This document shows positions 2,955-35,738 of a stretch of DNA of 64,000 nucleotides, piece after piece. Numbering within the stretch: position 1 is the first letter of the stretch; the number at the start of each line of letters is the position of its first letter. The notes below the pieces were generated by a model, which worked only from the letters and a program-made list of their open reading frames with translations, did not search any database and was not told the origin of the DNA. The DNA lies in NCBI GenBank assembly GCA_963722305.1, contig CAVRKE010000001.1, forward strand, positions 501,549 through 565,548, read 5' to 3'. This DNA is from Candidatus Levyibacteriota bacterium. Lineage in GTDB: Bacteria; Patescibacteriota; Microgenomatia; Levybacterales; UBA12049. A program made the position numbers and the translations under genes.

Positions 2955-3401
2955 ATGAAAAGTCAAAAAGGTTTTACATTAATCGAACTCCTCGTCGTCA
3001 TCGGAATACTTGCAATCCTCTTTTCAATTGTTTTAATTGCTATCAATCCAGCCAGGCAATTTAACCAAGCTAATGACACAAAAAGAAGAAGCGATACGCT
3101 GCAGATTTTGAACTCAATTCATCAGTATGCGGCTGAGCATTCCGGAAATCTACCAACAGGTTTAACAGCCGGGATGGCCGCAGTCGATGTTTCTGATACA
3201 ACCGGAGATGCTAATATCTGTGCGCAGATAATGCCAACTTACATTTCGGCTCTTCCGCAAGATCCGCAAAACAACAGTGGAGCACCAATCACAACCTGCA
3301 CCGGCTATGACACCGGCTATCAGGTTTCAGTAGATACACAGGGAAGAGTTACAGTTAGCGCACCGGATGCTAAACTAGGCACAGTGTCGGTAACCAGATA
3401 A
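2955..3401 (+). CDS. type IV pilin-like protein, tandem paralog
   Basis: Same prepilin N-terminus. The first ~190 bp and last ~60 bp are nearly identical at DNA level to 2504..2953; the central part differs. Confidence 0.8.
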   Translation: MKSQKGFTLIELLVVIGILAILFSIVLIAINPARQFNQANDTKRRSDTLQILNSIHQYAAEHSGNLPTGLTAGMAAVDVSDTTGDANICAQIMPTYISALPQDPQNNSGAPITTCTGYDTGYQVSVDTQGRVTVSAPDAKLGTVSVTR

Positions 3402-3503: not shown

Positions 3504-4046
3504 ATGCCATCGATAGCAAGACGAGGACACAGAGTAGGGCCTGAACGAGGCGGAACAACAGATGTTGGTGGAGCACCCGCAACTGCTACGAAAGAAGCGG
3601 GTGGAACTATGGTTGTTCCGGACATTGAACATTCTATTTTTGGATCCACCCCGCAACAGTTTGCGGCAATGTTTGAGCAAGAATACAGCGAAATCTATTT
3701 TGAAGATATACCATTAACGCTTCGTTCTAAGGACGGCAGTAAAATAAAGCTTAAACCCGGAGTTTTTGTTACAACTACAGATTCTAAAGGAGAACCAATC
3801 CAACAATGTTTAATCGACCGGGGAATTATCATAAATATTCTTTTAATGGACGCTGTTCAACCAGACGGCACACAGATTGAAAGGAGTTTTCCTAATGTCG
3901 AGGGACGTAAAACATTATTAACACTTGCAGGGTTTTGTAGCGAAAAAGATCATATGCCTACTATTACTATCGGCAGTGCTGCTCATAACAGGCTGAAACA
4001 AGCTATACAGCAGTATCGCCAAGAAAGATCTGGTCAGCATCCATAA
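3504..4046 (+). CDS. hypothetical protein
   Basis: 180-aa ORF with no recognisable motif. A consensus promoter directly upstream supports expression and the 3504 start. Confidence 0.45.
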   Translation: MPSIARRGHRVGPERGGTTDVGGAPATATKEAGGTMVVPDIEHSIFGSTPQQFAAMFEQEYSEIYFEDIPLTLRSKDGSKIKLKPGVFVTTTDSKGEPIQQCLIDRGIIINILLMDAVQPDGTQIERSFPNVEGRKTLLTLAGFCSEKDHMPTITIGSAAHNRLKQAIQQYRQERSGQHP

Positions 4047-20230: not shown

Positions 20231-20992
20231 TTAAAGCGTTATTTCTAAATCGTCGACCGCGGCGGTGGTGTTGGGAAAAATTGTTTTGGCTTTCTCTTCG
20301 GCTTTTTTCCGCTCTTCTAAAGTTAAATAAACAGGGGCGCTGAAGTGCGTCAACAGCAGCTTTTTGACATTCTCTTCTTTGGCAACAGTTGCCGCCTGGA
20401 CCGGGTCAAGATGACCTGTGTCGCCCTCTTTAGTCTGAATATTTGAGCATTCACTAATTAGAACGTCGGCAGCGTGAGTCAGCTTTCTTAAGCCTTCTGT
20501 AAGCCCGCAGTCGCCCGTGTAGGCAATTGTTTTACCTTCAAGTGTAATTCTATAACCGTGGTCTTTGAATAAATGAGCTTGCTCAACTACCGATACGGGA
20601 AATCCGACATTTTGTTCTCCTGAGGGAAGCTCATGCAGCCTGATTTCGGTTTTTGGGCTTTGCGTATTTTTCGGCTGAGAAAGGTACCCTGTCATATAGG
20701 GCGGATTATAAAAAGTGTCAAAATCTTTCTTTCTGCCCTTTGCCACATAAACATCAATCCCCTGTCTAAGGAAGAAGCTCGACAAAATTCCTAACCCAGA
20801 AACATGGTCTTGATGAAAGTGGGAAATAAAAAGTGAAATCGGTTTGTCTTCGGTAATATATTTGTTGAGCTTATAAATGCCGTTGCCAGCGTCAAATACT
20901 ACGTAACGCTCTTTGCTGTCGATAAGAACGCAAGCTGTATTGCCGGTTGGAGTTGTATACCACCCGTTAGTGCCTAAAAATATAATTTTCAT
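20231..20992 (-). CDS. MBL-fold metallo-hydrolase (RNase Z/beta-lactamase fold)
   Basis: ISHFHQDHVSGL (HxHxDH) motif. Start chosen at MKIIFLGTNGW (20992); the longer ORF to 21139 would overlap the upstream gene. Confidence 0.65.
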   Translation of the reverse strand: MKIIFLGTNGWYTTPTGNTACVLIDSKERYVVFDAGNGIYKLNKYITEDKPISLFISHFHQDHVSGLGILSSFFLRQGIDVYVAKGRKKDFDTFYNPPYMTGYLSQPKNTQSPKTEIRLHELPSGEQNVGFPVSVVEQAHLFKDHGYRITLEGKTIAYTGDCGLTEGLRKLTHAADVLISECSNIQTKEGDTGHLDPVQAATVAKEENVKKLLLTHFSAPVYLTLEERKKAEEKAKTIFPNTTAAVDDLEITL

Positions 20993-21026
20993 GGTGTGCA
21001 AATTTGTTGTCGGTCTTTGAACATTA

Positions 21027-21696
21027 TCACACGAAATCAATTCTTGGGAAAGGGGATGCTCCGTATAATCTGATTTCGCCATTTGGATCAGGGAATACCG
21101 GTTTTTCACCTTTTGCAAAAGCATAAAACGGGGCTTCACTCATGATCCTAACATTGGTTTCTCCACGGAATTGATGGTCACAATCAGGAATAGTAAAAAG
21201 TTCTCTTCGAACCGCGCCTGTTGCTAAATCGTAGAATATTTTACCAGCCCCTGGTCCAACCATCTCATCTTGTTCTCCAATTACAATACATACTTCACCG
21301 CTAAATTTACTTAATCCTTCTCTTACCATTCCTTCCGGCATGTCACCAGATGGCGCATAGAGAAGAATCCTTGAGACTTCTGGATATTCGTGAGCCACTG
21401 CAGCGATTGCGCTTGCCCCTCCTGAAAATCCCATTAATAAAATCTCCGGTGCTGGCTCCCCGCATGTCACCCAAGCGTTGCTTCTTGCATACTGAAGTGC
21501 TGCTCTTAGGTTAATATCAGGAAGATACCCAACCCTGATATTGTTGCCTGTTCTAACAACAGCTCCCAATTCCTCTGTCTGCATGTGGTGAGCTAAACGC
21601 TTATATTCATGTAGGCGTCCATCTATGCTGCCATCAATGCTGGGAACATTAATAATTATTCTTCTTGAAACATTTGGATGAATCGCTAATTGAACT
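21027..21696 (-). pseudogene. alpha/beta-hydrolase (dienelactone-hydrolase-like), C-terminal part, interrupted by IS3
   Basis: GFSGGA nucleophile elbow. The frame is open from the IS3 boundary (21696) through 21027. Confidence 0.7.
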
Positions 21697-21737: not shown

Positions 21738-22475
21738 TTAGACTAAGTTTTCCTCCTTTCCAAAATATATTTCAGCCGGTGTTCTGTAATTAAGCGATTG
21801 GTGTTTTCTTTCATAATTGTAAAAGTAAAAATAGTTTTCAATGTTTTCTTTTGCTTCCAAAACAGTAGCGTATTCTTTTAAGTATACCTCTTCATATTTA
21901 ACACTCCTCCATAACCTCTCGGTGAAGATATTGTCCAGTGCCCGTCCCCGTGAGTCCATGCTGATTTTGACATTGTGATTTTCCCAGAGATCTGTCATCA
22001 GATGATCGGTATTTTGTGATCCCTGATCTTCATTAATAATGGTTGGTCTTCCGAATTTCTCAATTGCTTCAGTTGCAGCATCAAAACAAAAGTCTGTTTC
22101 AAGGGTAATTGAGAGCTTCCAGGAAACAACAAATCTGGTAAACCAATCAAGAAAGGCAGTTAAATATACAAACCCATGTTTCATCCGAATATACGTAATA
22201 TCTGTGCCCCAGATATGATTTGGATATCCTGCAACTACTCCTTTGAGTAAATACGGATAGAACATGTGTTGTTTATCGGGTTTACTCAAATTAGGCTTCG
22301 GATACAATGCCTCATAGCCCATTTCACGCATCAGGCGTTGTGCCTGTTTTCTGTTAACACCAACCTCTTTTGCCATACGTCTTGAACCATAAAAAGGGTG
22401 GGCAGTATATACCTCATCAATTCTGTTCATTAAAATGAGTGCCTCGGGTTTAACCGGTCTTGGCTGATAGTACAA
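21738..22475 (-). CDS. IS3-family transposase OrfB
   Basis: Identical 245-aa product to 1071..1808. Confidence 0.85.
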   Translation of the reverse strand: MYYQPRPVKPEALILMNRIDEVYTAHPFYGSRRMAKEVGVNRKQAQRLMREMGYEALYPKPNLSKPDKQHMFYPYLLKGVVAGYPNHIWGTDITYIRMKHGFVYLTAFLDWFTRFVVSWKLSITLETDFCFDAATEAIEKFGRPTIINEDQGSQNTDHLMTDLWENHNVKISMDSRGRALDNIFTERLWRSVKYEEVYLKEYATVLEAKENIENYFYFYNYERKHQSLNYRTPAEIYFGKEENLV

Positions 22476-22578
22476 ACTTGATCTGGAAATATCCAGAAGA
22501 TCAGCCCGTATACTCTTTGGTAATACGCTTTCTGTTTTGTTAATGTGCAGAGCAATTTCTCCGGGAGTAAGGATATCC

Positions 22579-22875
22579 CTACTCGTCGAAGATGCCCATC
22601 TTTTTTTTAAGAAAGTCTACTTCGACTTTTAATCTTCCTATTTGCCGATACAATTCCTGTACCAGCTCACGGTCATCCCGTTTCCGTTGAATAAGATGTT
22701 CTGAAAACCCTTGCGAGAGAATCTCCAACGCCCGGCGTTTCCATTTCGTTATTTGGGTTGAATGTACACCGTACATACTTGACAGCTCCGCAATTGTTTT
22801 TTGTTCCTTAATTGCCTCCAGAGCAACTCTGGCTTTAAATGCCGGTGGATGAATTCTGCGTATTTTTTGATCCAT
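22579..22875 (-). CDS. IS3-family transposase OrfA
   Basis: Identical 98-aa product to 671..967. Confidence 0.85.
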   Translation of the reverse strand: MDQKIRRIHPPAFKARVALEAIKEQKTIAELSSMYGVHSTQITKWKRRALEILSQGFSEHLIQRKRDDRELVQELYRQIGRLKVEVDFLKKKMGIFDE

Positions 22876-23212: not shown

Positions 23213-24466
23213 TTAGATTTGTCCTTTTCGAATTTCATTCCCCCTTTGGAAAGCCAGACGACTAGGATCTCTTCCTCCATGGGATAGAATGTTGGAATGT
23301 ATGTCTGATGTGCTCGGCGTTGTTCCTCCGTTTGCACCATACCTTACTTGAGCAGGGGGAATACCTTTGCGTCTATTCCACGCTCCGCTTTCAACAAAAT
23401 TTATTAAAGTGTTTTTTAACACATGCAATCCTTCTCTAACTCTCGCCTCCATTACTGCTTTTGCATCACCGTCAAGTTGACCATCTATGGTGGAACGGCA
23501 CAAAACAGCAAGTGCTTCTACTTTTTCTATTATGGTTTTCGGGTCAACCATTTTCCCCGGTCTTAAAAAATTTGGAAGCTCAACTAGATATTTACTCATT
23601 GCAGCCACCAGGTAAGGAAGATATCTTACATCATAGCTATCCCTTCCTTCCGCTTTTAATTCTTGGGGGAAAGGAAAAAATAGAGAATTGAATATTGCAG
23701 ACCGTTCTTCTTCCAAAGACACTCGAAGGTTCCAAACGGCAACCGATTGTAAAAAACTGTCAACACCATCTTTGGGTACATATCCACTCGCAACCAATTT
23801 TTGAATACTGCCTATCGTAGGTAATCTTTGTATCACCAACGGTAAACTATTAACGGAGACAGGCAAATTCCGTTCTTTATTTGGCTGCATGAGGGTTGTT
23901 ATATTTGTAAAGGGCCTGCCTGTTGTCTCATCTAACAACCGTCCTTGAACAAGAGCAACCGCCAAGTAGTCTATTATTGTACCTTTTGTATGCGGCTCGT
24001 GTCTAGCAACTTCAAAATATGGCAACTGTTGCTCTCCCAATAAATCCTTTAAATAAGCTGGCTCCTGCTCTGAATCAGGCATGTCTGATTCAGCCACATC
24101 CGGAGATTTTCCCAGCAAACTCGCCAAATAAACGGATTGGCTATGGCTTGCTCGCCTTTCTCTATGCCAGTTATCAAACACAATTTCTCCAAGGGCAATA
24201 AAGCGCCTGGAAGGGCAAAACATCTTATCGCCAAGATGCATAATCAGTTGCTTGATGGTTAAACCCTCCGTCGGAAATGGCAACGGTTGATTTTCAAAAA
24301 CTACAGTTGCTATATACGCCGGCAGACGTAGCTCCGGATGCCTGAGTAAAAGTTCAGGGAAGTAGCGTGGATCCACAACACTTGGTGTTGGTTTTACCCA
24401 TTTTATCGAACCTGAAGATTCTTCCATTCCGTTACCAGGAAGCGCCTCAATTAGTTGTCTTTGCAT
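23213..24466 (-). CDS. hypothetical protein
   Basis: 417-aa ORF with coding-like composition and no recognisable motif. Confidence 0.5.
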   Translation of the reverse strand: MQRQLIEALPGNGMEESSGSIKWVKPTPSVVDPRYFPELLLRHPELRLPAYIATVVFENQPLPFPTEGLTIKQLIMHLGDKMFCPSRRFIALGEIVFDNWHRERRASHSQSVYLASLLGKSPDVAESDMPDSEQEPAYLKDLLGEQQLPYFEVARHEPHTKGTIIDYLAVALVQGRLLDETTGRPFTNITTLMQPNKERNLPVSVNSLPLVIQRLPTIGSIQKLVASGYVPKDGVDSFLQSVAVWNLRVSLEEERSAIFNSLFFPFPQELKAEGRDSYDVRYLPYLVAAMSKYLVELPNFLRPGKMVDPKTIIEKVEALAVLCRSTIDGQLDGDAKAVMEARVREGLHVLKNTLINFVESGAWNRRKGIPPAQVRYGANGGTTPSTSDIHSNILSHGGRDPSRLAFQRGNEIRKGQI

Positions 24467-24513
24467 GAAGAAAATTATAGCAGAAATATTACATAATGCA
24501 ACTATAGGGTATC

Positions 24514-24554
24514 TGGCAGGCCAGGAGGGAATCGAACCCCCAACAGAGGTTTTG
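24514..24554 (-). tRNA. 3' exon of a split tRNA-Trp(CCA)-like gene: anticodon-loop 3' part, variable loop, T-arm, acceptor 3' strand, encoded CCA
   Basis: Minus strand reads CAAA-ACCTC-TGTT-GGGGG-TTCGATT-CCCTC-CTGGCCT-G-CCA. The acceptor 3' strand pairs 7/7 with AGGCCAG at 24757-24763. Confidence 0.55.
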
Positions 24555-24730
24555 TCCCAGAAGTATCTCGCAAATTTTTATTGCAGGGTTGCTCAGATTC
24601 GAACTGAGAAAAGCAGTTTTGGAGACTGCTGTGATAACCATTTCACCACAACCCTTTGAAAAATTTGCTTAGAACTTCGGGATCCCGTAGATGTAAGCTT
24701 TTTCTCCGAAAAAGCAACATACTACTGGGA
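24555..24730 (-). other. 176-nt intervening sequence inside the split tRNA gene; contains a complete tRNA-Trp
   Basis: Its flanks are mutually complementary (TCCCAG/CTGGGA, GAAGT/ACTTC, GCAAATTTTT/AAAAATTTGC). The 5' part has two hairpins (GCTTTTTC-GGA-GAAAAAGC and CGGGA/TCCCG). Confidence 0.55.
24584..24655 (-). tRNA. tRNA-Trp (anticodon CCA), 72 nt
   Basis: AGGGTTG-TG-GTGA-AATGGTTA-TCAC-A-GCAGT-CTCCAAA-ACTGC-TTTT-CTCAG-TTCGAAT-CTGAG-CAACCCT-G. All stems are Watson-Crick, with U33 and a canonical T-loop. Confidence 0.85.
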
Positions 24731-24763
24731 GAGACCTCAGTTATACCATTTAACTACTGGCCT
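24731..24763 (-). tRNA. 5' exon of the split tRNA-Trp(CCA)-like gene: acceptor 5' strand, D-arm, anticodon stem 5' strand plus CTC
   Basis: AGGCCAG-TA-GTTA-AATGGTA-TAAC-T-GAGGT-CTC. D-stem 4/4, anticodon stem GAGGT pairs ACCTC of the 3' exon, U8/A14/G18G19 present. Confidence 0.55.
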
Positions 24764-24818
24764 ATGACGTTATTATACTGGGAATGGACAAATCTAGCAA
24801 TTGAGGAAGAAACAGGGG

Positions 24819-24995
24819 TTATTTCAGTTTTTCGTTTTCTTTGTGGTCGGTAACTTTTCTACAATGCCGGCAATATTTTTTGAGCAGCAATTTTGCCTCT
24901 GTATTCAGCTTATTTCTGGTCGTGACGTAATTTCTGTTTTTACAAACAGTGCAAACGAGCCCCAAAACTACCCTATGTTCTCCCTTTTTTGCCAT
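24819..24995 (-). CDS. rpmG: 50S ribosomal protein L33 (58 aa)
   Basis: MAKKGEHRVVLGLVCTVCKNRNYVTTRNKLNTEAKLLLKKYCRHCRKVTDHKENEKLK has a C-x2-C ... C-x2-C zinc ribbon and L33 spacing. Below the ORF-track length cutoff. Confidence 0.8.
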   Translation of the reverse strand: MAKKGEHRVVLGLVCTVCKNRNYVTTRNKLNTEAKLLLKKYCRHCRKVTDHKENEKLK

Positions 24996-35203: not shown

Positions 35204-35314
35204 ATGGCTAAAAAGATTAAGACAATCATTAAAATTAACATTCCGGCCGGAGCAGCCCGCCTGCCATCGCTGGTAGCTCAGGCATGGAACGCTATTATGA
35301 AAGGACGAAATTAA
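35204..35314 (+). CDS. 36-codon uORF duplicating the N-terminus of L11; stops 1 nt before the rplK start
   Basis: MAKKIKTIIKINIPAG is identical to the rplK N-terminus, with 11 synonymous and 0 non-synonymous codon differences. The rest is a frame-shifted decayed copy of rplK 5' sequence. Confidence 0.5.
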   Translation: MAKKIKTIIKINIPAGAARLPSLVAQAWNAIMKGRN

Positions 35315-35315
35315 A

Positions 35316-35738
35316 GTGGCGAAGAAAATCAAGACAATAATTAAGATAAATATACCTGCCGGGCAGGCCACGCCTGCGCCACCGGTGGGAACGGCTTTGG
35401 GACCACACGGATTACCGATTATGGAGTTCGTCAAGGCCTTTAACGACAGGACTGCCGAGCAAAAAGGCACCATTGTTCCGGCTGTAATTACCGTTTACGA
35501 AGACCGCACTTTTTCGTTCATTGTCAAAAAATCTCCGATTGCGGAAATGATTAAAAAAGCGATGAACCTGGAGAAAGGTTCCGGCAAACCGGGGACAGAA
35601 TCGGCAGGAACATTGACTAAAACTCAGGCCGAGCAAATTGCCAAAGACAAGCTGGAAGATTTGAATACCGACGACGTGACTCAAGCTGTCAAAATTGTGG
35701 AAGGAGTCGCCCGCTCAATGGGCATCAAAGTACAATAA
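35316..35738 (+). CDS. rplK: 50S ribosomal protein L11 (GTG start)
   Basis: PPVGTALGPHGLPIMEFVKAFN...VITVYEDRTFSF is canonical L11. Confidence 0.9.
   Translation: MAKKIKTIIKINIPAGQATPAPPVGTALGPHGLPIMEFVKAFNDRTAEQKGTIVPAVITVYEDRTFSFIVKKSPIAEMIKKAMNLEKGSGKPGTESAGTLTKTQAEQIAKDKLEDLNTDDVTQAVKIVEGVARSMGIKVQ

Follow-up and report, generated by a model that had tools for sequence, protein, structure and literature searches.

What is a complete tRNA-Trp gene doing inside another tRNA-Trp gene? The question is raised by a 64,000-nucleotide (nt) stretch of a Candidatus Levyibacteriota bacterium (assembly GCA_963722305.1, contig CAVRKE010000001.1, positions 501,549 to 565,548), which we call the window and whose numbering is used below. 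On its minus strand a tRNA-Trp(CCA) gene is split into two parts (24763-24731 and 24554-24514) by a 176-nt interruption that contains a second, complete tRNA-Trp(CCA) gene (24655-24584). An initial annotation, made from the sequence alone, had delimited this arrangement, and its coordinates proved exact. Our comparison with related genomes suggests that the insert is probably a palindromic mobile DNA cassette that encodes no protein, splits a tRNA gene and supplies the replacement.

The 5′ part of the split gene, which we term the host and assign to type A, comprises tRNA positions 1-34 and ends in CTC (24731..24763, 33 nt), and the 3′ part comprises positions 35-76, from CAAA at its start to GCCA at its end (24514..24554, 41 nt). 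A type-I double-hairpin cassette of 176 bp (24555..24730) lies between C34 and C35 without target duplication, and its cargo is a complete type-B tRNA-Trp(CCA) with A1-U72 and G73 but without an encoded CCA (24584..24655), called by ARAGORN and matched by the Rfam tRNA model with 63.4 bits. When ARAGORN was run with intron search on the native sequence it called the inner tRNA alone; after deletion of the inner tRNA it called the outer gene as intron-containing. In-silico excision of the cassette joins GAGGUCUC to CAAAACCUC on the minus strand, and ARAGORN accepts the joined halves as a mismatch-free 74-nt tRNA-Trp(CCA), in agreement with the flawless cloverleaf that had been described. Both tRNAs carry the bacterial Trp identity set (A1-U72, G73, CCA anticodon), and they are only 65% identical. 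Upstream lies the presumed sigma-70-type promoter of the resident gene, TTGCTA-17 nt-TATAAT (24772..24800, minus strand, 10/12 match), preceded by rpmG (ribosomal protein L33, 58 aa; 24819..24995, minus strand), which was taken from the list of open reading frames (ORFs) and served as the anchor for orthologous loci. The promoter sequence is kept 5′ of uninterrupted tRNA-Trp orthologues in the locus alignment, and we presume from its position that it drives the whole 250-nt transcript.

Which of the two genes is the resident one? A search of genome contigs with the L33 protein gave 311 relatives, the best of which belong to Ca. Levybacteria/Levyibacteriota, and L33 (24819-24995) places the window itself in Ca. 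Levybacteria. We compared 80 related species-level loci around rpmG (related loci are denoted by L and three digits), and in most of them a single uninterrupted tRNA-Trp follows rpmG. Uninterrupted type-A genes with the same sequence as the outer gene of the window were found in L001 (95% L33 identity), L069, L003, L019 and L024, and these also have the promoter region of the window. The alignment reveals the exact empty site, CTC followed by CAAA, with no duplicated base, and filled and empty alleles are therefore present at one site among related genomes, as expected of a homing element. Type B, the inner tRNA of the window, is the native rpmG-linked tRNA-Trp in many other relatives. As the closest relatives have uninterrupted type A and type B is native elsewhere, the resident gene is the outer one, and it gained its insertion recently. 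This bears out the argument from the conserved neighbourhood that one of the two genes is ancestral, while the undecayed outer halves, which had been taken as a sign of function, testify instead to a recent insertion.

The same nested arrangement was found in L023, with a cassette 94% identical to that of the window, identical cargo (100%) and host halves, and insertion at the identical position. Yet the L33 proteins of the two genomes are only 76% identical and the upstream DNA is dissimilar, and hence the nested allele has moved between distant genomes. The comparison of orthologues that had been proposed as a check thus yielded both an uninterrupted type A with identical halves in the closest relatives and an independently assembled copy of the same layout. 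With L023 and more than 80 further contigs reassembling the layout independently, the nesting in the window is real and no assembly artefact. The reversed nesting, type A inside type B, was found in L008 and L032, and in L078 a third type (C) lies inside a B-like host. Although host and cargo are swapped between the window and L008, the sequences flanking the inner tRNA are conserved, and in L023 a third, decayed type-B shell lies outside the pair of type A with type B inside.

The end of the outer gene hints at an earlier round of the same process. The encoded CCA that the initial annotation counted among the tRNA features is indeed present, but it is probably accidental, as no other tRNA of the window encodes one. 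GCCAGATAC is one base off the cassette arm GCAAGATAC(TTCTGGGA) found 3′ of the type-A tRNA that is cargo in L008, and this comparison explains the CCA. The motif CAGATAC (24509..24515, minus strand) is a candidate remnant of the 3′ arm of an older cassette (C-AAGATAC-TTCTGGGA); the match is short, and it was compared with L008 (GCAAGATACTTCTGGGA) and L023 (GCCAAGATACTTCACGAA, followed by a relic of a type-B 3′ half). Being one base away from the arm of the type-A cargo in L008, it suggests that the resident gene of the window was probably once cargo itself.

Several related loci show further peculiarities. In L023 (284-450) and L024 (~3180-3340) a second rpmG 3′-end fragment and a type-A promoter region lie 5′ of a type-A tRNA-Trp; the type-A gene of these two loci apparently came with flanking DNA of another lineage. 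L013 has a 100-N scaffold gap (3175-3275) exactly where tRNA-Trp is expected after rpmG, followed by a type-B 3′ end, and nested tRNA loci may break assemblies. L018 (836-1100) and L064 (1130-1400) have no tRNA-Trp after rpmG and share a conserved, structured-looking region of ~250 nt without an Rfam match.

How is the insert built? The 250-nt RNA is predicted to fold with -92 kcal/mol and is far more stable than its shuffles (z = -6.6). In place of the one long helix extending the outer anticodon stem that had been pictured, the fold backed by covariation has the outer anticodon stem meeting two side-by-side hairpins, an empty one (24730-24683) and one bearing the inner tRNA (24682-24555). 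The empty hairpin, unit 1, reads TCCCAG-TAGT-ATGTTGC..apex..GCTTACA-TCTA-CGGGA (24683..24730, minus strand) and is supported by the minimum free energy (MFE) fold, covariation and the arm consensus. The loaded hairpin, unit 2, has the arms TCCCG-AAGT-TCTAAGC.. and ..GCGAGAT-ACTT-CTGGGA around the cargo (24555..24682, minus strand). The two inverted units abut at the central palindrome CGGGATCCCG (24678..24687, minus strand), which is invariant by construction of the scan described below.

A single metagenome scan with the pattern TCCCAG-N(32-46)-CGGGATCCCG-N(95-125)-CTGGGA returned at least 120 stretches, and these include at least 84 distinct tRNA-loaded cassettes in at least 81 loci; the other matches are unrelated chance or repeat matches. 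All family counts here and below are among the matches listed. The cargo is tRNA-Thr(UGU) in 43 cassettes, Cys(GCA) in 12, Thr(CGU) in 11, Trp in 10, Thr(GGU) in six and Pro in two, and the insertion site is 34/35 in Trp and Cys, 35/36 in Thr and the D-loop in the two Pro copies. The flanks of the 82 anticodon-loop insertions allow the host anticodon to be rebuilt, and it is the same as that of the cargo in 81, the lone exception being a host with a mutated anticodon. Host and cargo are on the same strand in all cases, no target duplication was seen in Thr and Cys hosts either, and no double-hairpin cassette devoid of cargo was found in anticodon loops. Cassettes are 150-190 bp long including the 72-nt tRNA; 79 of the 84 have their cargo in the downstream unit, and the five exceptions, all of them Cys cassettes, have it in the upstream unit. 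Cassette flanks of the window type were also found inside tRNA-Thr genes, and overall one scaffold occurs in seven tRNA species at differing loop positions, even in D-loops, which requires repeated new insertions. The window copy has every type-I feature, with a TCCCAG unit ending in CGGGA, a unit running from TCCCG to CTGGGA, a tRNA at one apex and a location in the centre of a loop with the same anticodon. The locus is one instance of a widespread family of tRNA-replacing cassettes in Levybacteria and relatives. Scanning IMG/VR viral contigs with TCCCAGN{25,55}TACGGGATCCCG gave 12 matches, all of them GC-rich chance matches without tRNAs, and hence no sign of the cassette on these phage contigs. 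In our searches of the full-text literature neither nested tRNA genes nor cassettes bearing a tRNA turned up, and the family is apparently undescribed so far. We consider the element categorically new, with the caveat that a new class of protein-spliced intron remains a minority reading.

The family consensus of unit 1 is TCCC(A)G, four variable nt, ATCTTGC.. apex ..GCTTAGA, four nt and CGGGA, and that of unit 2, its inverted copy, is TCCCG, four nt, TCTAAGC.. apex ..GCAAGAT, four nt and C(T)GGGA, the units abutting where CGGGA meets TCCCG. The 84 copies thereby share terminal inverted repeats of conserved consensus, TCCCAG..ATCTTGC on the left being mirrored by GCAAGAT..CTGGGA on the right. 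At the variable positions the stem tetramers form Watson-Crick pairs within a unit in 64-83 of the 84 copies vs 20-35 of 84 across units; more than 20 different tetramers occur, with covariation at stem positions 1-4. Since the tetramers pair within and not across units, the two-hairpin form is under constraint. Reverse complementation turns the conserved arm motifs of unit 1 into those of unit 2. In double-stranded DNA the units therefore amount to one object in opposite orientations, whereas their RNAs would be unlike, one hairpin having a U-rich internal loop and the other an A-rich one, and this mirror symmetry at the level of DNA but not of RNA points to recognition of the arms as DNA. 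A promoter as the general role of unit 1 was considered and rejected: its -35-like TTGCCA is good, its -10 TTAGAA is poor, no internal promoter was called in the window, and the five Cys cassettes place the empty unit downstream of the cargo.

What becomes of the split host genes? Of the 80 sufficiently flanked cassettes, 41 give back a detectable host with the correct anticodon when they are excised precisely. Even these recoverable hosts have about eight times as many mismatches in the acceptor, anticodon and T stems as the cargo (33 of 731 pairs vs 8 of 1428; Mann-Whitney p = 1e-5). Chimeras, truncations or further interruptions mark about half of the host shells, whereas the cargo tRNAs are intact. 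Chimeric shells consist of unpairable halves of different tRNA variants (e.g., L146, L137, L184 and L008), truncated ones were found in L057, L062 and L190, L023 also belongs to the chimeric or truncated shells, and the host anticodon is mutated in L098 and L078. Extra flush hairpins occur in the D, anticodon or T arms of host shells. In L162 (minus strand, ~281 after excision) we found a complete three-level nest, Thr(UGU) in Thr(UGU) in Thr(UGU), and further layers form partial nests in L127, L141, L109 and L115. A fourth decayed layer was noticed on the 5′ side of the L162 nest.

Motif-based scans for further flush hairpins showed that the type-I scaffold has counterparts. Unrelated GC-rich hairpin scaffolds act alike, namely CCTGCCCGCC..GGCAGGCGGG with Thr or Trp cargo. 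This second family consists of ~40-nt GC-rich flush hairpins, with loaded copies in L008 (118-223), L078 (2738-2841), L032 (459-565) and L190. Its cargo-less copies lie in D stems, anticodon stems and T arms of shells or fragments (L008 864-905; L024 1700-1739 and 2469-2508; L033 2290-2332; L050 2046-2077; L123 7488-7523; L132 2836-2874; L146 11554-11593). A third family of hairpin elements is a recurrent D-loop insertion with GAGCTCGCTTGCTTGACAAGCG(G/T)GG in Trp, Thr and Cys host shells (L032 ~412-447; L078 ~3810-3890; and the host 5′ halves of L202, L105, L111 and L114). On yet another GC-rich scaffold, tRNA-Ile(GAU) is nested in tRNA-Ile(GAU) at A35/U36 in L132 (2810-3090) and L041 (4861-5184), and L041 also contains repeated shell fragments.

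Taken as a tRNA-replacing cassette, the element would enter the centre of the anticodon loop, or rarely the D-loop, of a resident gene with the same anticodon, without target duplication, and would thereby split and inactivate that gene. The cargo, here the type-B tRNA-Trp, would be co-transcribed from the resident promoter, freed by ribonuclease (RNase) P at its 5′ end and by RNase Z or exonucleases at its 3′ end, furnished with CCA and would take over decoding. The split type-A gene would stay behind as a shell that decays, gains hairpins or comes to lie outside a new invasion of the cargo. Accordingly worded for this genome, the inner type-B gene is most likely the working tRNA-Trp gene, and the outer halves are most likely a freshly split resident gene rather than exons. 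For the insertion itself we favour break-induced copying or recombination, with the conserved tRNA halves as homology arms: in a homing-like manner a trans-acting nuclease would cut the hairpin loop of an intact tRNA gene, repair would proceed from the filled allele, and only insertions whose cargo matches the broken gene would survive. The initial annotation had listed tRNA-targeted insertion of a tRNA-bearing element among its readings, and the empty and filled alleles, the family with a shared scaffold and the decay of half of the shells all speak for it.

Which enzymes might make the break? Two kinds of gene found in related tRNA clusters are candidates, I-Ssp6803I-like PF11645 genes and small GIY-YIG genes. 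At least 13 related loci have a free-standing PF11645 ORF of 124-125 aa (PD-(D/E)XK, I-Ssp6803I family) between tRNA-Thr(UGU) and tRNA-Tyr (L015 2295-2672; L019 1749-2123; L003, L016, L036, L051, L052, L053, L061, L068, L078, L097 and L185), and a strong promoter-like sequence precedes each ORF. In the PDB these proteins best match 2OST, which we take to be I-Ssp6803I. The endonuclease of the cyanobacterial tRNA-fMet intron also belongs to PF11645 (PMC13011429). GIY-YIG nuclease-like ORFs of small size (~90 aa) are dispersed among the tRNA genes of these clusters in at least 16 related loci, often adjoining tRNA-Trp or a cassette (among them L023 1132-1404; L032 693-950; L080 631-888; L050 2510-2761; L024 2183-2431; and L011, L030, L048, L066, L071, L126 and L158). 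Clustering of the ORFs within +/-2.5 kb of the 84 cassettes recovered housekeeping genes, GIY-YIG genes (seven loci) and serine recombinase genes (five loci), and no recurrent cassette-linked enzyme gene beyond these neighbours. Circumstantial support of this kind makes the PF11645 and GIY-YIG proteins candidate nucleases that may cut tRNA genes.

Does the cassette belong to a known class of element? Group I introns occur in anticodon loops of bacterial tRNAs, in tRNA-Leu(UAA), in tRNA-fMet (with I-Ssp6803I) and, at 35/36, in tRNA-Asn/Asp of Patescibacteria (PMC13011429). The cassette resembles them in its precise anticodon-loop insertion without target duplication, in its variable presence between relatives and in the occurrence of I-Ssp6803I-family endonuclease genes (PF11645) in the same lineage. 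Unlike them it has no ribozyme core, no U(-1) and no terminal G, its harm is apparently offset by a spare tRNA gene and not by splicing, and any endonuclease would be encoded outside the cassette. The group I model (RF00028) gave no match at E<=10 in 24400-24900, nor at the gathering score in the window, in line with the earlier inspection by eye, which had recognized no group I core, and Rfam identified only tRNAs, and no ribozyme or other known RNA family, both in 24400-24900 at E<=10 and in 16 related loci. The group I end rule (U at -1, terminal G) does not describe the only junction that restores CCA, where the exon ends in CUC and the insert in GGGA. Group II domain V/VI models (RF00029 and relatives) in Rfam found no match either, and the 176-nt insert has no ORF. 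Self-cleaving ribozymes (hammerhead, hairpin, twister etc.) were dismissed for want of a core motif by eye and of an Rfam match. Archaeal bulge-helix-bulge (BHB) introns, for which we draw in part on PMC4090602 and PMC3978253, include a tRNA-Trp intron encoding a C/D box RNA and transposing introns of Thermoproteales, beside split and permuted tRNAs. The cassette shares with them an RNA gene within the intervening sequence of a tRNA-Trp, several insertions per tRNA, non-canonical positions and related insertions common to different tRNAs. It differs in its bacterial host, its full-tRNA cargo of the same anticodon and its decaying host halves, and no BHB is present in the MFE and centroid folds: the junctions are opposed across a 3 x 4 nt loop under the flush hairpins and not staggered over a 4-bp helix between 3-nt bulges. 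From the sequence, A36-A38 cannot pair with the intron start UCCC.

Mobile elements offer a second set of comparisons. Prophages and islands reportedly integrate in tRNA genes with the crossover in the anticodon or T loop, classes that Williams is said to have drawn up in 2002. Such islands are kilobases long, encode an integrase, carry a direct repeat of the 3′ part of the tRNA and rebuild a hybrid gene. The cassette resembles them in entering tRNA genes, often in the anticodon stem-loop, and in bringing replacement tRNA sequence that would keep the cell viable; unlike them it is a 176-bp insert with no ORF, and hence no integrase, and no repeat of the tRNA 3′ half, and it delivers a whole independent tRNA gene around which the old one is split. 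Crossover by a tyrosine or serine recombinase was rejected, as no 6-8 bp overlap or 2-bp dinucleotide is repeated at both junctions. Palindromic non-autonomous elements include miniature inverted-repeat transposable elements (MITEs), Rickettsia palindromic elements, Correia and repetitive extragenic palindromic (REP)-type elements, and the palindrome-associated transposable elements (PATEs) derived from the insertion sequences (IS) IS200/IS605; they carry no gene and usually show target duplications or a fixed target of 4-5 nt. The cassette is like them in being short, free of ORFs and hairpin-forming, in its conserved inverted arms and many copies and in its location inside genes, RNA genes included. 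It is unlike them in aiming at the apex of tRNA-gene hairpin loops, with 5′ flanks that vary (CTC, TTG, TCG, TGG or CAG), and in always carrying a matching tRNA. Judged as a MITE mobilized by a DDE transposase, it has terminal inverted repeats but no target-site duplication, and the IS3 copy of the window at 21738-22875 is unrelated to the cassette ends. An IS200/IS605 (HUH) element or PATE was ruled out by the lack of a fixed target, the 5′ flanks being TCTC, TTTG, ATCG, TTGG or TCAG, and IS605-like guide-to-target pairing by stem tetramers that do not co-vary with the flanks. The cassette thus has the location of a tRNA intron and the compensating role of a tRNA-integrating island, but it lacks defining features of both, as it does of MITEs, PATEs and BHB introns.

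Could the insert nevertheless be a true intron? The 250-nt transcript would then give two tRNAs, the outer halves being joined by a bacterial endonuclease and a ligase (e.g., RtcB) of a new protein-dependent class. Excision at the hairpin bases does give a perfect tRNA-Trp, precise removal of the insert leaves 41 of 80 hosts intact, the hairpin stems covary, and further flush hairpins in host D and T arms are cleanly excisable (e.g., L050, L123 and L132), the multi-hairpin hosts resembling the multi-intron tRNAs of some archaea. We nevertheless think this improbable: there is no group I/II core or other ribozyme and no 3-4-3 BHB, the cut sites being directly opposed at the helix base; the last base is C in the exon and A in the intron; the mirror symmetry of the conserved motifs holds for DNA, so that as RNA they differ between the units; and hosts decay relative to the cargo, many of them being chimeras of unpairable halves. 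The anticodon shared by host and cargo would have no rationale in an intron but is required if the insertion is disruptive. The forms of splicing named in the initial annotation fare no better: ribozyme and BHB features are absent, the conserved scaffold shows its symmetry in double-stranded DNA rather than in RNA, and cuts by RNase P and RNase Z would leave two unjoined pieces. The wider version, in which a protein pathway of Levybacteria removes the flush hairpins as introns of a fifth kind and rejoins the exons, with two working tRNAs per transcript (three in nests) and the shells as multi-intron genes, seems to us similarly doubtful. Bacteria would, if the intron reading were true, have a new class of tRNA intron.

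Passive spread is another, still unlikely, explanation, in which the nested allele has no dedicated mobility, arose once or a few times by accident and spread by natural transformation and RecA through the tRNA halves. It would account for the flush, duplication-free junctions, which are as in homologous replacement, for window host halves identical to native type-A genes, for the horizontal transfer of the nested allele and for the lack of a transposase among the ORFs near cassettes in the related loci. It is at odds with the single scaffold in at least seven tRNA species, at varied loop positions and in D-loops, which implies repeated new insertions, with the strongly conserved scaffold arms, which imply protein recognition, and with the repeated invasion into nests, which implies drive. 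The disrupted duplicate proposed initially, a local duplication or rearrangement of the resident tRNA-Trp, or else an assembly chimera, can be given very little weight. Two genes of the same specificity do lie at one locus, and the 100-N gap at this position in L013 marks a region hard to assemble; against this, the cargo shares only 65% identity with its host and is of a type native to other lineages, independent assemblies from many studies and samples show the same architecture, and in L023 an insert of 94% identity occupies exactly this position.

Several observations weigh against a tRNA-replacing cassette as well. No enzyme gene lies in or beside the cassette of the window, which has neither a PF11645 nor a GIY-YIG ORF, and neither kind of ORF tracks nesting in its presence; for PF11645 no correlation is visible, a gene and nesting occurring together only in L078, L097 and L185. 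The 1.36 Mb of related loci yielded no larger autonomous relative that shares the cassette ends and has a transposase, and flush, duplication-free insertion without a common flanking motif fits no well-characterized transposition chemistry. The covarying hairpin stems would also fit a structural role at the level of RNA or of single-stranded DNA. About half of the host shells, that of the window included, are perfect cloverleaves after excision, as continued use would also make them. Finally, the scan fixes the length of the loaded unit at 95-125 nt and so biases the cargo set to intact tRNAs; the intactness of the cargo is partly an ascertainment effect of the scan, whereas the contrast in stem quality is not.

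As to the surroundings of the locus, a 417-aa ORF without a Pfam match lies directly downstream (23213-24466, minus strand), followed by an IS3-type orfA/orfB pair (HTH_Tnp_1, rve; 21738-22875, minus strand). Exact-protein look-ups of the window L33 and of the 417-aa neighbour found neither on record. A 302-aa protein with a metallo-beta-lactamase fold (Lactamase_B_2; 20231-21139, minus strand) is possibly RNase Z-like. The nusG/rplK region lies elsewhere in the window, near 35.3 kb on the plus strand, and part of the rplK sequence that encodes the N terminus of L11 (..TIIKINIPAG..) is duplicated just 5′ of the real start (35230-35400, plus strand). A type-II-like motif at 35256-35367 was discarded as a chance match within the rplK region.

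What would such a cassette mean for these organisms? If our preferred reading is true, a selfish DNA disables an essential single-copy tRNA gene and becomes indispensable as the only working copy, neither splicing itself like an intron nor rebuilding the gene like an island. Serial replacement, A into B and B into A, would leave nested fossil layers, and the tRNA genes of the reduced genomes of the Candidate Phyla Radiation (CPR) would be open to wholesale horizontal replacement. The shells, wholly missed by standard tRNA finders and annotation, would be a record of past invasions and a tracer of gene flow among uncultivated lineages. The tRNA halves of 35-40 bp, or the enzyme involved, would in turn offer a natural and very compact means of inserting cargo site-specifically at tRNA genes.

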